A DNA stretch of 61,747 bases, the filler included. It is 11 parts of 11 records of this genome, joined end to end, with 100 filler letters (N's around TTAATTAATTAA, not from the genome) between each part and the next. Parts side by side here need not be neighbours in the genome. Positions count along the whole stretch, not along the records: positions 29,456 to 37,040 come from SRR7504441_9866; 10 more parts are not named here. One strand, given 5' to 3'. Position numbers and translations under genes: made by a program. The notes beneath the pieces were generated by a model. The model was not told where the DNA came from. It did not search any database and saw nothing but the letters and a program-made list of their open reading frames with translations. Position 1 is the stretch's first letter, and every line of letters starts with the position of its first letter. Below are positions 6,476-57,983 of this stretch, piece after piece.

Positions 6476-6575
6476 NNNNNNNNNNNNNNNNNNNNNNNNN
6501 NNNNNNNNNNNNNNNNNNNTTAATTAATTAANNNNNNNNNNNNNNNNNNNNNNNNNNNNNNNNNNNNNNNNNNNN
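6476..6575. other. Artificial contig spacer
   Basis: N-run + TTAATTAATTAA + N-run, 100 nt. Confidence 0.98.
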
Positions 6576-12963: not shown

Positions 12964-13063
12964 NNNNNNNNNNNNNNNNNNNNNNNNNNNNNNNNNNNNN
13001 NNNNNNNTTAATTAATTAANNNNNNNNNNNNNNNNNNNNNNNNNNNNNNNNNNNNNNNNNNNN
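12964..13063. other. Artificial contig spacer
   Basis: N-run + TTAATTAATTAA. Confidence 0.98.
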
Positions 13064-21561: not shown

Positions 21562-21661
21562 NNNNNNNNNNNNNNNNNNNNNNNNNNNNNNNNNNNNNNN
21601 NNNNNTTAATTAATTAANNNNNNNNNNNNNNNNNNNNNNNNNNNNNNNNNNNNNNNNNNNN
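21562..21661. other. Artificial contig spacer
   Basis: N-run + TTAATTAATTAA. Confidence 0.98.
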
Positions 21662-25338: not shown

Positions 25339-25438
25339 NNNNNNNNNNNNNNNNNNNNNNNNNNNNNNNNNNNNNNNNNNNNTTAATTAATTAANNNNNN
25401 NNNNNNNNNNNNNNNNNNNNNNNNNNNNNNNNNNNNNN
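25339..25438. other. Artificial contig spacer
   Basis: N-run + TTAATTAATTAA. Confidence 0.98.
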
Positions 25439-25629: not shown

Positions 25630-28600
25630 ATGAAACTGTGGGTTCGGTACGGCGGGCTGCAGCCGACCAAGGTGCTCGTGGAGCCGGACGAGGACGTGGA
25701 CGCAGTCAAGGAGGCCGTGATTGCCAAGCTCGGGCTGACTCAGCTTGCAGCCGGCCTGCTCCTCCGGGCGGCCGACGGCCGGTCTCTCGACCCGATGCTC
25801 AGCCTGGCCGAGCAGCAGGTGCCGGAGGGCGCCCAGTGCACTCTCGAGCCCATCCAGCAGCCTGCCCCGCCCGAGGCTGGCGGATCGCCCGCACGGCCAC
25901 TCTCGCTAGCGGTCTTTTTCAGCGCGCCGCTGGTGGGCTGGAGCAAGCAAATGCCGGAGACCCCGCTAAGCCTTCTGGACTACAGAACCGAGCGCGAGCT
26001 GCTCATCGACTCGTTTGCGCACGCTGGCAAGGAGATCAGCCTGAGCTTCCACTTCGCGACCTCCAAAATGCTGCAACGGGCCCTGATGGAGGGCGCGACT
26101 GCACTGCACTACTCGGGCCACGGGAACAGCTCAGCCCTTGCGTTTGAGGACGGGAAGGGCTCGGTGCACATGCTCAACGTGCAGCAGCTGCGAGGCCTGT
26201 TCGAGAAGACTAAGGAGGGCGGGCGGCGTAAGGTACAGTTTGTGTTTGTGTCGGCGTGCTACTCGCTCGAGATCGGCCGGGCCTTTGTGGCAGCCGGGGT
26301 GCCTAGCGTGGTGGCCTGCAGCATGGACGACCGAGTTTCCGACACCGGAGCCCGCACGTTCGAGGATGCATTCTACGTCTCGCTGGCCCAAGGCGATACA
26401 GTGCTCAGGGCCTTCGAGATGGGCCAGCAGGCGGTCTCGACCTCCACATCGGCTGTGGCCCGTGAGGACACCAACAAGTTCTTCCTCCTCCCCGAGGTGA
26501 CCCCCCATCCCCCCTTCTGGGCCTACCCAGCCGGTGGCAGAATGCTGAGCATCTGCACTCGCGGTCGGTGTTTGGCAGCGCTAGGCTGCTTGACTGCAAG
26601 TGGTCGCTCTGGGAGGGATATCCTACTATTGGCTCAATTCCGCCTCCCATCGAGGGATTCCAGGGCCGCAACCTCGAACTGTTCACCGTGCTAGATCACT
26701 TGCACCGTGGCCGGTTTGTATCTGTAGTGGGAGGGCGCGGGATCGGCAAGCGAGCGCTGGTCACGGCGCTGGCCAATTACTGCTCTGAGCGGGAGCAATT
26801 CAGAGAAGGAGTGCTCTGGCTGGCAGCCAGCGGGATGCATAGCGTAGCGGAAGTGCATCAAGCGATAGCGCAGGCGGCCGGACGGGAGCCCGAGCTGCCT
26901 CCCGAGGGGCTTTTGGCCGGACTGCAGATACTGCTTGTTCTTGAAAGCTGCGATGGTCTGCATGCCTCGGCACGAAGCCAGTTTGGGAGGTTCCTCGAGG
27001 GCTTGATGCAGGAGCAGCAGCTCTCGATCGTGACCACAGCCTGCGAGCCGATCGGAATCCTTACTGACGTTGTCGAGAAGGTGCTGCTGCTAGACAAACT
27101 CTCTCCGGCAGATCAGGCAATCATGTTCAGTCGGAGAGCCCCTCGAAGGATTAGACCACAGGAAGTCGGGTGCAGCAGCCCGGCGCAGCTGTCTTCGTGG
27201 CTGAGTAACAACGCCAAGCTGATTCAGATGACCCCACGAGAGGTGGTACAAGCCACACGAGAGCTAGTCCAGAAGCCGCTCAGCCAAGTGCTCGGCCTGG
27301 CCAGTAGCAGTGTGCCCACCCACCCAACCGAGCTGCTAGAAGTGCGAAGATTCTACGAGGCCGAGTTGCCCACTGTAGGCGAGATTGTGGTAGTTGAAGT
27401 AACCTCGGTGACTGAGCTTGGGGTGTTTGGCAAGCTGCTTGAGTATGGGAACGCCTCGGGTGGTCACCACCGGCTGGCCGGGCCGATCCAGGGCAGGGAT
27501 CATTCTGCAGAAAGAAGTCAGCCGGCGACGGATGGATGAGGCAACGCATTTCAGAGTGGGCAAGAAGGAGTACGGCCCTATTGCTCCCCGCCAGTGCATA
27601 ACTGACTGATAGTTGGGTATAGTGGATTTTTTAAAATTTCGCGGCTACGCCGCTACGCTTGACGACGACTGTCAGGTATGTTCGTGTGATCAAGGTAGAC
27701 ACGAGATCCAACACAGTGGACCTGAGCAAGAGAAAGGTGCTGGCTGGCTGACTGGCTGTGGCAAATGGGGGGGCAGGTTAATCCAGCAGAGCGGGAGCAC
27801 GCCAAGCAGCAGTACCACAAGGGCCTGACAGTGCGCAGGATAGTTGAGATGGTTGGGTCGCAGTGCGGTATATCGGTGGCTGAGCTGTTTGAGCGAGCTG
27901 TCTGGCCTCTGCACCGAGCGCACGGGCATGCATACGATGCGTTCAAGCAGGAACTGTCGGATAGGGACAGTGTGCTCAGCGAACTCTCACTCCCGTTGTC
28001 GGTGCACGATGCGCTGTACGAGGCGATTCTAGTCGAGATGAGCCAAGCCCTTTCCAAGGTGGCACTCAGCACGCAGAGTCGAGTGCTCGATCTGTCGGCT
28101 TGGGGTCTCAAAGCACTGCCCCAGTGCTTTCTCGAGCTGCATGCACTGCGCACTTTGAACCTCGAATCGAATAAGCTGGTACGCCCTGCTTGCCAGCCCA
28201 AGCTGATTTGGGCCAAGGTCGGGCTGCCGACGAGCATTGGTAGCCTTAGCTTGCTGGAGGAGATCAACCTCAACAACAACAAACTCGAGGGCCTGCCTCA
28301 TACCCTGCCGGAACTGCGCAGTCTGCATCGGCTCTACCTGCACAGTGCTGTTCAAGGTTGTCATAAGGACGCAATTTCGATCATTCTGCGGTCAGCGCTC
28401 AGCTGCAGTGCCTGGTAGACGCTTGATGTGTGCTGGTGCAGCATGCCAGCGCTAGTCGAGCTCAACCTCTCTAACAATCAGCTTTTCGAGGACTCGGATC
28501 CCGAACCTGGTACGCAGCTGACTGCTGAGGTGGCTGACCATGGGCCAGGTCTACTGCCTCCCGAATTTGGGGCGTCACTTATGGCACTGGAGTCGCTTGG

Positions 28601-29199
28601 GATCAGTGGCAACTGCATAGAGACTCTGGAGCATTGTGGGTTTGAGCGGCTGGGCCGGCTCACGTTTCTGGACTTGAGTAGCAACCGAATCTCACAGGTA
28701 GAGTGCTGGTGGGCGATGGCGAGTGAATGGCAGGTGCCAGAGCTCTCGATGCTTCACCGGCTGAGCACGCTCAATATCAAGTCCAACACAATCATGGAGC
28801 TGCCGCCAGTGGACAGCTGGACCAGCCTGGAATCCTTGGTGTGCTCTTACAATCGTTTGGTTAGCCTGCCAACCCTGGCCCCGCTGTCTAGACTACAATA
28901 CCTCGACCTCAGTCACAATCTGCTTAGCATTCTTCCGAAGGTCGGACCGGGTTTGCCCCTGGACTGAGGGCTTCTGCTGACAGAATATTGGGCAATGCTC
29001 GTCTTTGACCGATTTGGTTCTTTCGGACAATCAACTGGAATCTCTTCCACTAGAGCTGGCCAACATTGCATCTCTCGAGCGGTGCTTGGTAAATGGGAAT
29101 CCGCTAGTGGCAGTTCCCTTAGAACTAGGTAAGATCATCAACGTTGATCGGGATTCGCTGACTGAGCTTAGCAAACAACTGAGTGCGACATTGTTTTAA
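25630..29199 (+). CDS. NLR-like protein: ubiquitin-like + CHAT protease + NB-ARC/STAND NTPase + integrated eIF2-alpha domains 1-2 + LRR
   Basis: LHYSGHG and VFVSACYS (CHAT His/Cys), GGRGIGKR and LLVLESCD (Walker A/B-like), RFYEAELP..LLEYGN..EVSRRR..VDLSKRKV..AYDAFK (eIF2-alpha), LxxLxLxxN repeats. Introns 26497-26540, 27460-27496, 27570-27675, 27737-27776, 28179-28217; later LRR introns not fully resolved. Confidence 0.85.
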
Positions 29200-29355: not shown

Positions 29356-29455
29356 NNNNNNNNNNNNNNNNNNNNNNNNNNNNNNNNNNNNNNNNNNNNT
29401 TAATTAATTAANNNNNNNNNNNNNNNNNNNNNNNNNNNNNNNNNNNNNNNNNNNN
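29356..29455. other. Artificial contig spacer
   Basis: N-run + TTAATTAATTAA. Confidence 0.98.
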
Positions 29456-29643
29456 ACATTCATTTTGTACATTCAACTTAATTCAACTACATGATTGTAC
29501 TGTACATAAAGTACTCATGTCTCAGTTTAAATTAAGTTTTACTAATGTTATAACTAATCACTATTGAGCTTTGCAACAGTCCCGATTCATTATCGTGTTT
29601 ATGTGGCAAAGCACGCCTTGTGCAAACCATTCGTCGCTTGTGC

Positions 29644-32600
29644 TTATTGCTCAGCATATGACTCCATGCACAGTCCGAACACCTGTGTGATGCATGGGTG
29701 ACTTTCTATGCGCTTTCAGGGAAGCCACCTTAATGCCGTTTGTGTAGCTGGCTCCGGGTACCTTCTCGCTGTCACCAAGCAAGTCGTCGGGACCTCCAAT
29801 CTGCACCGAATCATGTCACTCTGTAGCCACATGAGCTGCTAGACCGGAATGATGCACACTTCCTTGCCAGTCATTTCTTTCAGAATCACAGCAGCCGGAA
29901 TGGTGCCACCTGAGACCACACCAGCGTGAGTTGGGCTGGCTCAGAGACAAAGCGTCTCTAGATACAAGTGTACCTTCCCTGATCGCGTCCGGCCCCTCAC
30001 CATAAACTTCCGTAATGGCTGCACCAGCTGCCGCATAGATGGGCGCTGCCCTGTCGGCCATGAGAGGTGACACTGCAGCACACCAACATGCGTCATAATG
30101 ACCAGTGGCTCGAAGGCACCTTGCTGATCACAGACCACGTCTAGTGTGTTTGCGCTACCAAGCCCAGCAAACGCCTCTTCCAGGCACTTCTTGACACTTG
30201 CTTCAACAGCGCCGTGGTCAGATCCATGTGGGGTCCGGACGCCAAACGTGAAAGTCACACAGTTGGGCATCATGTAGGCGCACACATGCGAAACGGGCCC
30301 TGGAGTCGTCGAGCTTTCCACAGAAAGCAATGACAGAGAAGGATCCAGCCATCGGCTCTTCAAGAGCGCGCTCTGGTTATCAGCAGCAGCCTTTGCGATG
30401 CCAAGCTGTTTGCAGTATGTGTCGATGTCAAAAGCAACCTTCTCCGCATTTGCCACCTCAGCGGGATCAGTTTCAACCTGGAGCTCAGCAGTCAAGCTGC
30501 CTGTCGTCAGAGCACTCATGAGTGCAGCCGCCTCAGTCATGGCCTCGTGGACAGTGCCGCCAAATGAGCCAGAGTTCAGGTTCTGGCTACCTGCACTGAC
30601 TTTGACTGTAAAGTGCATCACTCCACGGAGTGCGTATGTCACACATGGCTTTTGGGCAGTCAGCCAGCTGCCGTCTGAAATGCAGATGGAGTCCACATCA
30701 CTCACAAATTCCTTGACCTTGCTCCCTGATGCAAGTGCACTGGAGCACGCACAGCCGGTGGTGTCGATCACAAGCTTGAGGTTCACAGGGAAAGCCTTGC
30801 CGAGCTTGACATACGCATCAGCAGTGCACATCCATGCCACAATCGGCCCCTTTGCATCTGAAGTGCCACATCCAAAGAGGTCTCCGCCTGCCTTTGTCAG
30901 GATGTAATCCCCACCCTCCTCAGTGTCCAGGTGCCCGTATACACACAGAGTCTTGGTTGCGGCGTCTGTCTCTGGGGCACGGAAGCACACTCCAATCAGA
31001 CCGTCATCTAGACTCACGACCTCGATCGGAGTGTCTGAAGAGCTCTGAAGCTTTGTGGCTTGGTCCTTAACAAGCCCAAGCGCACTGCTCTCGTTAGAGC
31101 CAGTCTTGGTCTCGAGCTTGACGTAATCTGCCAGCACCTTGACGTAGTCATCCTGGTGCTCATCCACATACTCGAGGAACTGCCGCTTGGGGTCGCTAAA
31201 CGAGAAAGTCACCTCCGCTGTGCACTGGCCTCCGGAGTTGCTCAGCACCACTGTGCTTGTGCTTTCGGTGTTGTACAGATCCATATTTCCCACCACGCCC
31301 ACGATCTTGCCATCCTCAGCCAGGGAGAGCCCCTCAGGCAACGATTCGCACGTGAAGGTGCCCTTGCCCTCGAACGTGGGTTCAAACTCGACTTGCGAGG
31401 CCATCAGGATGTTGAGCTTGTTACCGTTCGGATATTCGAGCCCGGACGGTGGCACTTCAAGCACGGCAACCGCGAGCTCTGTGCTCACTGAGCCGCCTGT
31501 GTTGGTCGCCGTCACTGTGTGAGTAGATTCGCCCACAGCAGACGAGTCTGGCACTCCAGTCACACTGCCAGTCGCACTGTCGAAGCTCAGCCCGCTGGGC
31601 AGTGCTGGTTCGATGCTGAAAGTCACTGGGGTTGCTGGCTCCACAGTCGGAGCACCGCCACCCTCCTCGATCCCAACCTCCGCAATGGCCTTGATCGCAC
31701 CCTCATAGCTGATGCTAGTGGGCGGTGCATCGACGATGATGATATCGACTTTGCATGTCTGCTCGCCACCGCTGTTGGCCAGCTTCAATGTAGTGGTGGC
31801 CTTCTCGACCGGGGCCACTGGTGTGCCTGAGATCACCCCAGTGGCAGGGTCGAGCGTGATGCCCTCTGGAAGCGGATTGGCCGAAGTCTCACTGAACGCG
31901 CTGAACACTCCCAAGCAGCCCTCTGGGGCCACCATGGGCTTGGTAGAGAACTCTTCGCCCACTGTCAGGCTGAGAGTCTCGCAAAGCAAACTAGTGGGCG
32001 GCGCATGCACCACTTGCACTGAGATCTCCGTCGACACCTCCCCGCCAGAATTCCACGCACTCACTGTGTGTTTGGTGCTCTTCGGCTCAAGAATCTCGTC
32101 GTAGCTCTCGGCGGTGCCGCTGATCAGTCCAGTCTCGGGGTCGAAAGTAAGGCCAGGGTGCAGCTCCGGCTCGATTTTGAGCGTGACCTTGGTATCAGCC
32201 GGCGCGACGGTCGGGGCGACTGAAGTGCCATCGGCGCCGACAGTGAAAACGGCACTCTCGGCCTCAAATGTGATGCTGGTCGGGGGCACCTCTTGCACCA
32301 TGATGTTGACAACACACTCAATGAACCCGGCACTGTTCTCGCAAGTGACAGTGAAGTCTGTTGCAGGGCAGCAGCCCTCGTTAGTTGGGCAGCCGCTGAT
32401 CGCGCCAGTCTCATCGTCCAGTGTCATCCCGGCCGGCAGTTCCGGCTCACAGTCGAAGGTCAGGTTCTCGACCCCATCAGGCGTGATTGTAGGCAGCATA
32501 ACCTCGAGCTGCTGCCCTGGCGCAAACACCCACGGAGTGCCAGCATACTCCATGGTCTCCGGCTCCACGTCAAAGCACTCGTTGTCGAACGCGTCCTTCA

Positions 32601-33870
32601 CGTTCTTGAGGTAGAGCACCAGCGACACCTGGCCCAGGCACTCAGCCCGAGCCTCTCCAGCTGCGGCCGACCTCGTCGAGCGCCCCACTAACCACGTCCT
32701 GAGCGTCAATCAGCTGCTCGACCTCGTACTCCTTTTCCAAGAAATCAAACGCTGCTTGGCACGCAGCGAGCGGGTCGCTCTGCCCGCTGACTGAGCCCGC
32801 GCTTGGCCGGGCACTCACCCCTCGCAGGCTGTCAATGTCGAAAGAGCCCTCGCGCTGGCTCTCGACCAGGGCTTCGAACGGGACGCCCGGCATCACACCC
32901 GGGGTCGGGTCGACGATGTCGATCTCGTACCCGAACTTCTTGATCCGTTTGTTGAACCATTTGAGGATCAGCTTGGACGAGCGAGGCAGGTCATACCTGG
33001 CTCCGGGGCTCAGCCTGGGCCAGAAGGCGCACAGTCACGTTGTGATCAGCCGCCAGATGAACGAGATGACCAGCTTGACCCGGCCATCCAGGAAATCTTT
33101 GGCGATAATCCCCTGGTGCGGGATCTTCAGCTTGTCGATCGCCTGCGCCGGGTCAGGCCCGTGCCGGCCAGCTAGCGTCAGTGATGGGCTGGATGCCTTG
33201 AAACAGATGTTCAGATTGTCCAGCCAAAGCGCCGTGTACCGCGCATTGTTCTTCACTCGCACCTTGAGCCCAGGCTCCAGCGTTTCGAGCACCTGACCCA
33301 CGCCTGATCGGCCGGGGCCGCCCGGATCCGCACCCGCGCCAGAGTGATCCCGGTCTTGAGCGACTCGATCAGATCCTCGACCGGCTCGAGCCCTGCTCCC
33401 ACGGCTCCCATCAGACCGGCGCCCGGCCGGCGGGGGCAGCGCACCGGCCTTTTTGAGCTTCATGTTGCACCACTTGGTACACACCCTGAGCGACACGTCG
33501 ACTGGCCCGCCGAGTGAGCCCGCGGCCAGCCGGCGGACGCACGGTCGGTGCCCGAAGTTCCGACGCTCCGCATCACCTGCCCCGCGCTGTCGGTCACCAC
33601 CCGCGCGACGCCCGAGCGACAGCGGCGCCGGCCGGGTTGGGCAGGTGAAACAGGCTCGCCAGCCTGGGGAGGTGGGGGGCGGGCAGGCCGGGCCGGTGGG
33701 CGGGCGGGCAGCGGACCGTAAAGTTGTCGGTCTTCATGATCTCGCCATCCACGGGCTTGAAACGCGACACCTGCCTCGCCCGTGACCCCACAGCCGAGAC
33801 AGCAAGCAGGCGGGCGGCTGTCGATAGCAGCGGCACACAAGCCGGAACGGCCGGGGGCGGGAGGCACCAT
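29644..33870 (-). CDS. Tandem calponin-homology domains + about 5 He_PIG-type Ig repeats + degenerate M20 (CNDP2-like) dipeptidase
   Basis: TKWCNMKL..DLIESLKTGITL..FIWRLI and LKWFN..AFDFLEKEYEVEQLIDAQD (CH1/CH2). LPxGL(S/T)xDxxTGxISGxP repeats. CVYGHLD, GTSDAKGP, PVNLK, ISD, YALRG, REGGTIP (CNDP2-like). Confidence 0.8.
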
Positions 33871-33914
33871 CGTTACGATTTGCCGTTGCCGTTGGTCCAA
33901 GCGAGGTTGGCCAG

Positions 33915-34494
33915 ATGAAGAGCTGGGCACTCGTGGGGGTGCTGGTTGGGCTGGCAGTGGGGACGACGGTGCTGGACGAGGCCGGGCTGGTGCTTCTAGA
34001 CCTCGGCAACGTCACCAGCCTCAGCGCCGGCGCCGACGCGGTCCCGCTGGTCCGGACCAATGTAATGAGCTCGTCGGCCCAATTTGGGGTGGAATCCAGC
34101 GCGTCACGCGACTGTTGATAAATATGTCACCGTCTGCAAGAAGTGGTATGTGGACATTGTTGACAGTCTTGGATTATTCCTTACTACAATCAAAAAGCAA
34201 CAAACGATATGCTGTGTAGACCGGACATTGATTGATCGCTCTGAAGAGTGTTGGAACGCTGTGCTACTAGAGAACCAGCCGGGAACAACAAATAGCACTA
34301 ATAGTAGTCTGTCCTTTGACAGAGTCAGTCTGAGCACGGAGTCCAACGACTTGGGCGAGTCAGATTTGCTGTTAGATGAGCCATCAGGCCAAGACGCGAA
34401 AGATGTCCTGGAAGAGGCTAGAGATTTATTTGAAGGTGCAAAAGCTGATGTAGATGAGGAGGATGACAACAACGATACATATGGCATTGACTGA
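33915..34494 (+). CDS. Small putative secreted protein with acidic tail (spliced, unknown)
   Basis: Signal-like MKSWALVGVLVGLAVG; D/E-rich terminal ORF ends at 34494. Confidence 0.4.
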
Positions 34495-34577
34495 CATCAC
34501 AAATGAGAGGTGAGCCGTCCTTTATATCAAAATTAAATGAGTGAAGCAAATCATCTGTGAATGCGTTTTTACGAGTA

Positions 34578-35630
34578 TTAGTAGCTGAGCAGGTCGCCAC
34601 CGGCTCCGCCATCAGGGGCATCCGTCTGATTGACACCCTTACGATCCAGCTCCACCAAATACACCGCCTCGGCCGCCACCAAGAACAGCTGCTGGCCAGC
34701 TGTCCACGCACTCACCGCCAGCTAGCCGGGCCGCACCGAGCATGAGCTGGCTAATCTTAGCCCCAGCGACGCTGATCCGGACCAACGGCCCCTTGCCTGA
34801 GCCCCAGACCAGCACCTCACCCTGAGCGGCGACGTAGAGCCGGCCAACTGGGTCTAGCTCAAGCGCAGCTGGCTCGGCATTCAGCTCCAGACGCGCCGGC
34901 TCGCCCGATCCGAGCGCGTGCTGATCCAACTGGTGCAGCCACACAGTCCGGCCGCTGGCCAGAGCAAGCCTGCCAGCCTCGAGCCTCACAGCTAGCGCCT
35001 GGCCACCGATACGTAGCGAGCCCTCCAATGTGCTGACAGCGCCTGGCCCGGAGCTGCACGCCGCAGGGCACGGCCCGCACCGTCGCCCCATCGGCAATAG
35101 TGCACCCGAGTGCCCGGGCCGTCGGCCGCCAGCCACCACACTGCCTCCGGCTGCACCGCGCGCACCGCACCGTCCGGCAGGTGGCCTTGGCAAGCCTGTG
35201 GCCCGGTTGAGCCGGCTGGATACCCAGCCTGGCACCAGGCAGGACGCCGCCAGCTGCCCACGGGATACCGGCACCATCCCCTGAGCCGCTGACCTGCCGC
35301 GGTTGGCTCCAACTGCGGCCCGGGCCAGCGCACCATTGGTACCGCCGGCCAGAGGCCCGGTCTATCAAGAGCAGCTGGCCCGGCCCGGCCCATTCGAGCG
35401 CCGCCTCCGTCAGCCCTCGCCCGATCCGGCGGGCCGAGCCCTGTGCTGGGTGGGCGGTCGGGTGGGGTCGGCAGGTCTACCTGGGTGCGGGCTGAGAGCA
35501 GCTTTGTGGGCCGCAGCCGGTCCAGCTTGACGATATAGTCCGGCTGGGCCTGCTCGGCCAGCCATTTGTAACCCAGGATCAGCCCGGCCACGCACAGCGC
35601 CGCCTGGGCCCCCACGGCCGACCGGGGCAT
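34578..35630 (-). CDS. Unknown protein with N-terminal hydrophobic segment (spliced)
   Basis: ALCVAGLILGYKWL followed by ORF 34639-35277; exon borders uncertain. Confidence 0.4.
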
Positions 35631-36106
35631 AGGCCTGAACGCCGGCTCCCACAACTCGGAGAAGTGTTCGTGGACCTATACCCCTTCCCAGATTAGATAG
35701 AGGCTGTCAGTAGTTTAATCCTTTCCTGTGCGCATTCGTGCGCACTTGAAATTATTTTACTATAGGATGCTGCAAAGCGGATATGACCTACAAGACTTAT
35801 AACCGCGTCGCTCCGCGGAGGAGATTTCTCCGCGGCGCTTAGCTGATCACTGGCCATTTCTTTGATGAACAAAAAGAAAAAATGAGCACGGCTTGTGCAC
35901 ACGTATACAAAGCGATGCTTGGGGGCACCGGCTAGTAAGTAGTGATGAGGCCGGCCGGTAGCCGATCAACTACCTGTCGATCGCGAACGCGTACCGACCG
36001 GCGAGGCGGTGGATTTTTAAATTTTGTAACGAATGAGCTCGTCGGATCTTTTAGTGACTAGTTCACCTTAGTTCACTAGGCACGCGTACACACAATAAGC
36101 CCATAG

Positions 36107-37040
36107 TTATAAGATGACATCTCGATGTGATTCGCGATCAGGTTGATCAGCGACGGAGTAATAGTTGCCAGATTTCATAGAGTGCAAAGTCGATGAGCGG
36201 GACCGCTGGCCTAGCAACACCTTGGACCTATCAACCATTCCAGCCGCAAGAGATTGATGCAGTGATAGCGGTCGGCCCAGATTCTGGCCATCGAACGAAA
36301 GCTTATCTTCCGGTAAAAGTGGCAGCTCGGAATCATCTATCACCCCTAGATCTTGAACAAACCCAAGCTTCTGCATGAGCTGGTAATTGGCTACTTTGGC
36401 CGCGTCCTGCACCACAAACCACACCAAAACGTACGCCCAGACTAGTGCGATCAGATCCCACTGAATTCGCTTCATCCCGGACCCAAACGGCCAATATGCA
36501 GAGAGCAGAGTCGCAGCCACCACAGCAATTGCAGCGGCTGCCATCACAATATTCGAAGGCCGCTGAGTCCAAAACCATCCCTTGGTGCGAGCGTTGAACA
36601 CAGAGCCATAGTCGGAGAGGGAGATCTTTAGGTACATCATTGTCTGGATCTCGCCATACTCCAATGGATCTATTCCGAGATGACACAGCCCACCGTCACC
36701 ATCAGCGCCGCTCAATCCGAGCTGCAGCAAAATAATGGAGGAGATGAGTGCCACGAGCCCGATCGCTGATGAAATCCAATAAAGCAGCTTGAGATCCCAA
36801 GACTGCGGCTTGAGACTCGCCTCAGCATTATCGTAGGCTACAGAGACAATGGTGCCGTCATTCAGGATTGTGATTGTAACCAAAGCAATCACAGGAAGAC
36901 CAAAGAACTTGGCCCAGTCATCCGGGTCTCCGTCTGGTTTATACTCACTAGGGTTGTACCCAAGCGACGAAATCAAGAAGAAGAAGAGCAGCTGCTCGGT
37001 GCAGGCCACGCGGTAGATCACAAAGTTCTGCATCCGAGTG
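36107..37040 (-). CDS. Plasma-membrane P-type H+-ATPase (type IIIA), C-terminal part
   Basis: RMQNFVIYRVA, ITILNDGT (conserved M6 Asp), YLKISLSD..F.ART, multiple TM helices. Confidence 0.9.
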
Positions 37041-37140
37041 NNNNNNNNNNNNNNNNNNNNNNNNNNNNNNNNNNNNNNNNNNNNTTAATTAATTAANNNN
37101 NNNNNNNNNNNNNNNNNNNNNNNNNNNNNNNNNNNNNNNN
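37041..37140. other. Artificial contig spacer
   Basis: N-run + TTAATTAATTAA. Confidence 0.98.
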
Positions 37141-40683: not shown

Positions 40684-40783
40684 NNNNNNNNNNNNNNNNN
40701 NNNNNNNNNNNNNNNNNNNNNNNNNNNTTAATTAATTAANNNNNNNNNNNNNNNNNNNNNNNNNNNNNNNNNNNNNNNNNNNN
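40684..40783. other. Artificial contig spacer
   Basis: N-run + TTAATTAATTAA. Confidence 0.98.
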
Positions 40784-44213: not shown

Positions 44214-44313
44214 NNNNNNNNNNNNNNNNNNNNNNNNNNNNNNNNNNNNNNNNNNNNTTAATTAATTAANNNNNNNNNNNNNNNNNNNNNNNNNNNNNNN
44301 NNNNNNNNNNNNN
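44214..44313. other. Artificial contig spacer
   Basis: N-run + TTAATTAATTAA. Confidence 0.98.
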
Positions 44314-51043: not shown

Positions 51044-51143
51044 NNNNNNNNNNNNNNNNNNNNNNNNNNNNNNNNNNNNNNNNNNNNTTAATTAATTAAN
51101 NNNNNNNNNNNNNNNNNNNNNNNNNNNNNNNNNNNNNNNNNNN
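51044..51143. other. Artificial contig spacer
   Basis: N-run + TTAATTAATTAA. Confidence 0.98.
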
Positions 51144-57883: not shown

Positions 57884-57983
57884 NNNNNNNNNNNNNNNNN
57901 NNNNNNNNNNNNNNNNNNNNNNNNNNNTTAATTAATTAANNNNNNNNNNNNNNNNNNNNNNNNNNNNNNNNNNNNNNNNNNNN
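57884..57983. other. Artificial contig spacer
   Basis: N-run + TTAATTAATTAA. Confidence 0.98.

Follow-up and report, generated by a model that had tools for sequence, protein, structure and literature searches.

One gene with a tandem calponin homology head, a He_PIG rod and a predicted dead dipeptidase: a candidate actin cross-linker of a marine protist

The window analysed here is a stretch of DNA of 61,747 nucleotides (nt) in which 11 contigs are joined by linkers (44 N, TTAATTAATTAA, 44 N); the order across them is not biological. One of these contigs (SRR7504441_9866, 29456-37040) encodes on its minus strand a protein with an N-terminal tandem of calponin homology (CH) domains, a rod of five He_PIG domains with an immunoglobulin-like (Ig) fold, and a C-terminal CNDP2-like domain of the M20 peptidases (Table 1). 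The gene ends ~190 nt from the contig's 3' end. An earlier reading of the letters alone (the sequence-only reading) had placed a filamin-like analogue built from these parts at 29644-33870. This span proved to be that of the coding sequence (CDS) on the minus strand, with base 29644 as the final base of the stop codon and an ATG followed by GT at 33870. The domain search that it had proposed places CH, He_PIG and Peptidase_M20 above the Pfam cut-offs in the open reading frames (ORFs) of the window. The predicted protein has a mass of ~121 kDa and a pI of 4.4. It carries no signal peptide or membrane segment (the highest 19-residue Kyte-Doolittle mean is 1.09) and is most likely cytoplasmic.

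The gene model was built by hand, guided by tblastn of P0004 (1147 amino acids (aa)), the closest relative found, and was checked by script. A stop-to-stop ORF of 922 aa (29941-32709, minus strand) is flanked on its upstream side by two shorter ORFs. From the ATG at 33737 to the stop, 13 exons join in frame through twelve introns, or 14 exons when the start at 33870 is used. The introns measure 39-64 nt except for one of 140 nt, all acceptors read cAG, and the donors are GT in eleven cases and GC in one (intron 5, 33143-33196, minus strand, where GC stands at 33196 in place of GT). To the eye, the introns are more GC-rich than the exons. The large exon 9 carries the end of CH2, all Ig domains and about three quarters of the M20 domain. 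Both the CH2-to-Ig and the Ig-to-M20 joins lie within this single exon (32628-30120); the sequence-only reading had rightly placed the latter join inside the 922-aa ORF.

The start was set by comparison of N-termini. In frame upstream of the ATG at 33737, the peptide VSRFKPVDGEI (33770-33738) is preceded by a cAG acceptor and matches the N-terminus of P0004. Spliced to 33770, the ATG at 33870 yields MVSRFKPVDG. The start of P0008 (MPLNFVPRDG) has equal spacing and is itself secure, because the transcript contig L001 carries an in-frame stop seven codons before it. Because of this match the CDS probably runs over 29644-33870 and encodes 1158 aa, with a predicted first splice. RNA evidence came from contigs of marine metatranscriptomes in four runs (word share at most 0.30). 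These contigs show the last four introns exactly as modelled, as skips of 47, 64, 44 and 46 nt whose borders read CT..AC on the plus strand; record 1 of X1 (1188 nt) carries four intron joints and record 9 of X3 carries two. Further RNA contigs lie over parts of 30120-32398 in the large exon.

Table 1. Positions of the gene, its domains and sites, and other features, counted along the window.
Feature	Position	Strand	Remarks
Whole CDS	29644-33870	-	1146 aa from ATG 33737, probably 1158 aa from ATG 33870
Probable start codon	33868-33870	-	GT donor directly after; proposed 97-nt intron 33771-33867 with cAG end
First sizeable coding exon	33717-33770	-	conserved N-terminal peptide and alternative start ATG at 33737
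Exons 1-7	33737-33717, 33576-33543, 33501-33445, 33392-33334, 33292-33197, 33142-33039, 32996-32819	-	model
Exons 8-13	32779-32672, 32628-30120, 30072-29974, 29909-29845, 29800-29729, 29682-29644	-	model
Large exon 9	30120-32628	-	2509 nt; CH2 end, five Ig domains, M20 up to the end of the lid
CH1	32996-33493	-	model residues 22-124; exons 33501-33445, 33392-33334, 33292-33197, 33142-33039; last codon completed at 32996
CH2	32587-32995	-	residues 125-233; exons 32996-32819, 32779-32672 and first 42 nt of the large exon
Rod of five He_PIG Ig-like domains	31195-32568	-	Pfam He_PIG, motif copies, AlphaFold2 model of P0004
Ig1	32568-32287	-	
Ig2	32286-32002	-	
Ig3	32001-31726	-	
Ig4	31725-31453	-	
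Ig5	31452-31195	-	
CNDP2-like M20 domain	29647-31194	-	residues 698-1146; lid/dimerisation domain ~30651-30145
M20 C-terminal exons	30072-29974, 29909-29845, 29800-29729, 29682-29644	-	four introns confirmed by RNA
Kept ligands of metal site 2	30664-30939	-	YGHLD 30939-30925 (His99, Asp101); SDAKG 30861-30847 (Asp132); ISDGSW 30681-30664 (Asp195)
DTTGC replacing the EGMEE loop	30751-30765	-	Glu166 and Glu167 both lost
DDLLGD replacing DDGAHS	29771-29788	-	metal ligand His445 to Gly
P-type plasma-membrane H+-ATPase, C-terminal membrane part	36107-37040	-	same contig and strand, cut by the contig end
Linkers	6476-6575, 12964-13063, 21562-21661, 25339-25438, 29356-29455, 37041-37140, 40684-40783, 44214-44313, 51044-51143, 57884-57983		

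We compared residues 30-860 of the long ORF with 5.8 billion proteins and obtained 175 proteins at E up to 0.001 among 8000 candidates scored. The first eight matches (E 1e-213 to 1.4e-111) belong to the true family, and the rest are He_PIG proteins with other partners. Four relatives (P0004, P0005, P0007 and P0008) are full length (1147-1206 aa), lie on transcript-sized marine contigs of 3.7-6.9 kb, and carry CH-CH, five Ig domains and M20 in colinear order. A survey of the architecture, as suggested by the sequence-only reading, thus recovered the same order in all four. Pfam recognises CH and He_PIG in each of them and both Peptidase_M20 and M20_dimer clearly in P0007 and P0008; Peptidase_M20 stays below the cut-off in P0004 (E 0.01) and P0005 gives no match. 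P0004 was annotated automatically as an 'acetylornithine deacetylase/succinyl-diaminopimelate desuccinylase-like protein', a misleading name. A cluster look-up added 16 further members, mostly fragments. Run on 405 collected proteins, a local hidden Markov model of the CH pair picked out nine family proteins and two ORFs of the window, and found the pair in no He_PIG protein outside the family.

The gene model could still be an artefact, in which the CH exons are a separate upstream gene and an Ig-M20 protein starts within the large ORF. The CH exons are small (21-178 nt), GC-rich and without RNA contig cover, and P0006 and P0009-P0011 start within the Ig rod; these four lie on short contigs and may be truncated. 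We give this explanation almost no credence. A separate upstream CH gene is very unlikely because the last helix of CH2 (VSLVLYLKNVKDAF, 32628-32587) is encoded first in the large exon and would be missing from such a gene, and because the four full-length relatives share the fusion, one of them with a start fixed by an upstream stop. The eight intervening introns are all in frame, with GT/GC..cAG borders. The CH exons would thus be spliced onto the large exon in this organism too, and the single gene of the sequence-only reading is upheld.

The CH head is only partly visible on raw ORFs. The ORF 32642-33034 (minus strand) matches Pfam CH at E 4.7e-6 (27.2 bits vs a cut-off of 26, profile positions 3-91 of 109), and the ORF 33035-33733 (minus strand) yields a CH tail alone, below the cut-off (E 0.012). 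CH1 is weak there because it is split over four small exons; the introns of this region measure 41-54 nt. Pfam CH reaches E 8.6e-20 in P0004 and 5.7e-22 in P0005, with two stretches in P0005, P0007 and P0008. Residues 35-245 of P0004 align in one piece (E 3.4e-16) to both CH domains (13-231) of the actin-binding domain (ABD) of Ain1, an alpha-actinin-like protein of S. pombe with a solved ABD. The P0007 pair matches Ain1 at E 1.9e-15, and the P0004 pair matches the solved ABDs of utrophin (2.8e-14), dystrophin (4.1e-14) and alpha-actinin-4 (~2e-12). The motifs TKW.N, DG..KL...IW.LI and L.W are retained in the alignment to solved ABDs. Between the window protein and P0004, CH1 is 80% and CH2 77% identical, which makes them the best conserved parts of the protein. 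The Pfam matches and the one-piece alignment bear out the tandem CH module that had been claimed, and we assign it by sequence to the tandem type 1 + type 2 modules of the alpha-actinin/spectrin superfamily. From what is known of this superfamily, the pair would bind F-actin.

The term 'filamin-like' holds for the overall plan of the protein and not for its ancestry, because filamin A and B match P0004 weakly and over CH1 only (E ~1e-6 to 1e-5), whereas the ABDs of alpha-actinin, utrophin, dystrophin and spectrin are the best matches, over both domains, at E 3.4e-16 to 1e-12 (1e-16 to 1e-14 for the nearest, those of alpha-actinin, utrophin and dystrophin). Some CH-containing proteins bind non-actin partners. 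The pair could likewise hold another filament system, the membrane skeleton or a partner protein, which would make the protein a structural linker and no actin cross-linker. It resembles solved ABDs moderately well (E 1e-16; identity, estimated by eye, of roughly 25-30%), and the CH part of the AlphaFold2 (AF2) model has low confidence. A non-actin target is nevertheless unlikely in our view: the match spans both domains in the order and spacing of a type 1 + type 2 ABD (alpha-actinin, utrophin, dystrophin, spectrin, plectin), with the ABD motifs kept, in the stretch of the protein that has changed least.

The head is followed by the rod. The 922-aa ORF matches the cadherin-like Ig family He_PIG of Pfam (PF05345) in four stretches at E 5.3e-34 (117 bits vs a cut-off of 24). 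An LPxG(L/M/I)xxDxxTGxISG-like motif occurs at model residues 283, 375, 472, 562 and 649, and the 'about five' repeats announced earlier are exactly five; the fifth is seen by its motif and by AF2 secondary structure. The domains are 86-95 aa each, are separated by short PPTS/PPSG linkers, and are mutually 29-49% identical. Tandem Repeats Finder, run on the contig, found nothing within the gene, and the rod is no recent DNA repeat. In the comparison of the window protein with P0004, each Ig domain is most similar to its positional counterpart (identities peak along the diagonal of the matrix), so the five-domain rod predates at least the split between these two; all four full-length relatives are colinear over the rod. 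The AF2 model of P0004, computed from 11 sequences (mean pLDDT 65), contains five beta modules (pLDDT ~60-86), and Foldseek aligns its rod, with low TM-scores, to multi-Ig rods such as five-domain cadherin ectodomains. The number of domains suggests a rod length of roughly 20 nm. Spectrin repeat and EF-hand families are absent from the Pfam matches of the window ORFs and five relatives.

The C-terminal domain has the CNDP2-like M20 fold that the sequence-only reading had recognised. Pfam Peptidase_M20 is found in the 922-aa ORF at E 1.3e-5 (25.6 bits vs a cut-off of 24.6). Among PDB sequences, the window ORF matches mouse/human CNDP2 (2zof_A, E 1.5e-44; 4ruh_A, 7.5e-43), CN1 (2.3e-39) and yeast Dug1p (7.5e-27), and P0007 aligns with CNDP2 over the full length (E 2e-137). 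Foldseek places the P0004 model on 4ruh_A (E 1.6e-29, TM 0.69 normalised by target), with the same two-domain fold. The metal ligands of CN2, as given in an excerpt of PMC6271292, are His99, Asp132, Glu167, Asp195 and His445. In the same excerpt Glu166 is catalytic, Asp132, Glu167 and His445 bind metal 1, and His99, Asp132 and Asp195 bind metal 2. An alignment of P0007 with 2zof served to transfer these sites to a MAFFT alignment that holds the window model together with 25 relatives; the relatives are a redundant set (8 clusters at 90% identity plus P0173).

Alignments to CNDP2 confirm the two replacements reported from the letters alone, EGMEE to DTTGC and DDGAHS to DDLLGD. The window reads ..IDTTGCAC.. 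where CNDP2 has ..EGMEES..; no Glu is present, and HMMER sets a three-residue gap there. Of the mapped residues, His99, Asp101, Asp132 and Asp195 persist in the window protein, and Glu166, Glu167, His228 (to Asn) and His445 are gone. The loss of Glu166 and His445 is family-wide: Glu166 is kept in none of the 25 rows that cover the site (window and 24 relatives), and His445 in none of the 24 that reach it (23 with another residue, one with a deletion). Glu167 survives in 13 of 25 rows, all in the P0007/P0008/P0173 group, His99 in 12 and Asp132 in 10; position 195 is Asp in three rows and Glu in nine, and Asp101 is invariant (25/25). All five metal ligands together are kept by no family member, and even P0007, the most CNDP2-like one, has four sites replaced. 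The control P0122, an unrelated M20 fusion in the same kind of alignment, keeps seven of the eight residues, with four of the five metal ligands and Glu166 among them, and is probably an active enzyme. This protein (1199 aa) joins WD40-type repeats to an M20 domain at 728-1171 and retains His99, Asp101, Asp132, Glu166, Glu167, His228 and His445. Because Glu166 and His445 are lost in the window and in every relative examined, we conclude that the whole family is a predicted pseudo-dipeptidase; the M20 domain of the window protein would no longer hydrolyse peptides. The pseudo-enzyme proposed earlier for this one protein, with its catalytic Glu and one metal site gone, thus extends to its relatives.

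Mono-zinc forms of M20 enzymes exist, and the domain might still be an enzyme tethered to the actin cytoskeleton that works with a single metal or a non-canonical base. It keeps the ligands of metal site 2 and Asp101, and mono-zinc DapE structures are among the Foldseek matches listed. Residual catalysis is nonetheless highly improbable, with the general base Glu166 gone from every row and Glu167, His445 and His228 missing from the window protein as well. The other ligands that are missing differ from one close relative to the next, as expected of a site that is no longer under selection.

A further explanation, which is possible if doubtful, sees the protein as an actin-anchored adaptor or sensor whose chief task is to hold a metal, a dipeptide-like metabolite or another protein in the remnant of the dead M20 cleft; dimerisation would then play a minor part or none. 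All three ligands of metal site 2 survive both in the window protein and in the P0006/P0009/P0010/P0011 group, with Asp at position 195 in the former and Glu in the latter; this Asp195-to-Glu substitution is noted for the related aminopeptidase AAP in an excerpt of PMC6271292. The invariant Asp101 would fit a retained cleft. P0007 and P0008 keep His228, are ~50% identical to CNDP2 and have lost only catalytic and metal residues, which suggests that the shape of the pocket is kept. However, residues 99 and 132 vary (Asn/Lys in P0004, Tyr/Gln in P0005), in P0007 and P0008 position 132 is Ala or Ser and position 195 is Ala, and the EGMEE loop is shortened in the clade of the window protein.

The sequence-only reading had called for a dimer model. 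We predicted two copies of residues 720-1147 of P0004, a relative and not the window protein itself, together with controls. The pair scored 0.84 in three runs, and the best of three controls scored 0.01. At least 95% of the contacts were common to the runs, and the pLDDT of the partner was at least 89. Of proteins solved as homodimers, 21 of 30 reached the score mark, as did 0 of 23 solved as single chains; on eukaryotes the counts were 17 of 29 vs 0 of 30. The predicted contacts are symmetric (941 with 938/941/942; 997 with 997); most involve the lid (906-1025) and some the catalytic domain. Pfam recognises M20_dimer in P0007 and P0008. For P0004 the model thus predicts a homodimer through the lid domain, which may echo the solved dimers of related enzymes (see below).

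We put at about 0.5 the probability that this is one gene of a marine protist encoding a cytoplasmic, filamin/ABP-120-like actin cross-linker that is dimerised by a dead dipeptidase. The N-terminal tandem-CH head of alpha-actinin type would bind an actin filament, and the five-domain He_PIG rod links this head to the C-terminal M20 domain. The dead M20 domain would keep the two-fold, lid-to-lid homodimer of its enzymatic ancestors. Its pairing would join two rods, and we infer that the resulting two-headed molecule could cross-link or gel actin filaments.

Several observations weigh against this proposal. The predicted pairing is the M20 way of pairing, so the dimer result may be a memory of the solved CNDP2, CN1 and Dug1p dimers; it expresses likeness and not binding. 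The prediction was made on P0004 and without use of the supplied alignment. When the window protein is compared with P0004, conservation is lowest in the lid (28% identity). Conservation within the lid is 0.558 at the interface vs 0.494 elsewhere (permutation p 0.05), which is marginal, and over the whole M20 domain it is 0.546 vs 0.537 (p 0.38). At the other end of the protein, the AF2 model of P0004 has a pLDDT <50 over the CH region and gives no structural confirmation of an ABD. The stretch 32400-33820, which holds the CH exons, is covered by no RNA contig in the four runs; this gap says nothing on whether these exons are expressed. Finally, the family is rare in the collections searched, with 8 clusters at 90% identity and one representative at the 50% level.

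Dimerisation and ligand binding could also be coupled in a metabolite-gated cross-linker that combines an enzyme fossil with Ig repeats of prokaryotic style. When the dead M20 domain binds a metal, or a small peptide such as Cys-Gly, the angle between lid and catalytic domain would shift, and with it the angle or spacing of the actin arms; the remnant of the dipeptide pocket would be shared between the two subunits. We regard this variant as distinctly unlikely.

The proposed cross-linker has its closest counterparts in ABP-120, the filamin or gelation factor of Dictyostelium, and in animal filamins, which likewise combine an N-terminal tandem CH, an Ig-fold rod and a C-terminal dimerising end. 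In ABP-120, a protein of 120 kDa, the rod consists of six repeats, the last of which mediates dimerisation; the window protein (~121 kDa, five rod domains) is close to it in size. The parts differ. Filamin rods consist of filamin/ABP280 repeats, whereas the window protein has He_PIG domains, and PF00630 gave no Pfam match in the window ORFs (E up to 1) or in P0004, P0005, P0007, P0008 and P0010 (E up to 0.01). Filamins dimerise by their last Ig repeat, whereas here an M20 domain of ~450 aa follows the last Ig domain and the predicted contact lies in its lid. ABP-120 is described as an orthogonal actin cross-linker (excerpt of PMC2275727). Alpha-actinin has a spectrin-repeat rod and a calmodulin-like EF-hand domain, neither of which Pfam finds in the window protein, and the dimerisation predicted for the window family sits at the C-terminal domain and not along an antiparallel rod.

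CNDP2 (carnosinase CN2), CN1 and Dug1p of family M20A have homologous catalytic and lid domains, and the lid-to-lid homodimer predicted for P0004 is like theirs. Compared with CNDP2, the window family is without Glu166 and His445, and the M20 domain of the window protein is fused behind ~700 residues of cytoskeletal modules. Many He_PIG proteins match the rod at ~25-38% identity, among them proteins of Euryarchaeota/Poseidoniales metagenome-assembled genomes, a Symbiodinium protein and an MMETSP transcript. Other He_PIG proteins have M60 peptidase, kelch, lactonase and other domains as partners, whereas the window protein has a CH pair and no signal peptide. By its predicted features the protein is neither a filamin, nor an alpha-actinin, nor an active M20 peptidase.

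Each module is already known, as is the plan of head, rod and dimeriser. Among the matches listed in the full-text literature, supplementary files excluded, no paper joins calponin homology with M20/CNDP2 or He_PIG, and we found no description of the combination of CH, He_PIG and M20 or of a CNDP2-derived pseudoenzyme as the C-terminus of a CH protein. Cross-linkers of this plan have been built repeatedly from different parts, such as spectrin repeats, filamin repeats and coiled coils. If the proposal is true, this one was built with no canonical part besides the head. He_PIG domains are otherwise known mainly from prokaryotic surface proteins. The dimeriser would be a metabolic enzyme that has lost catalysis and kept its quaternary structure, a pseudoenzyme recruited family-wide for architecture. 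The case would also illustrate that uncultured marine protists draw on cytoskeletal toolkits which families from model organisms do not cover. It settles no question of long standing and key steps are inferred, but it offers a testable example of an enzyme fossil in the cytoskeleton.

Other searches for relatives gave a mixed picture. When the four full-length relatives were used as a profile against 1.84 billion representatives, P0004, P0173, P0009 and P0011 were the only family members among the best 150; giant He_PIG proteins swamp this list, which is no census. The giants (P0140-P0285, up to 7149 aa) carry many He_PIG stretches close to the rod repeats, lack the CH pair and the M20 domain, and outscore most family members against the profile. 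A word search with the CH region of P0004 passed P0004 and P0005, a result that reflects the limits of the word index and the great size of the database, and is no proof of rarity. The ESM Atlas returned no usable match to P0008, and a scan of metagenome contigs with the family alignment found one locus, the P0008 transcript contig. In one subgroup of the family the M20 domain is followed by an extra C-terminal tail of ~125 aa that includes an EF-hand-like loop (DEMDT..SG.V). It is seen in P0009 (~750-875) and P0010 (~775-900), whose sequences begin within the rod; P0010 gives no Pfam EF-hand match at E up to 0.01.

Rfam has no match in the whole window. Leucine-rich-repeat ORFs at 27726-29199 (plus strand; LNLSNNQL, LDLSSNRI and similar) appear in the ORF list, and their adjacency to the gene is meaningless because they lie on another contig. 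Pfam finds no family in the longest plus-strand ORFs over the gene or in the ORFs at 34.1-35.7 kb, and there is no sign of an overlapping gene. Upstream of the gene, an AT-richer island (34069-34600) has open frames on both strands (141 aa with an acidic tail on the plus strand, 130 aa on the other) that match no Pfam family; the island may represent an untranslated region or an exon of a gene not yet recognised. A dinoflagellate host, guessed from splice signals, was dropped, and the only hint at the taxon comes from the relatives of the H+-ATPase fragment on the same contig. This fragment is 58-68% identical to marine transcripts, 44% to an oomycete, 42% to a pelagophyte, 39% to a pedinophyte green alga and 36-37% to Aureococcus. 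Three of the five relatives named are stramenopiles (36-44%), a weak hint at a stramenopile host.

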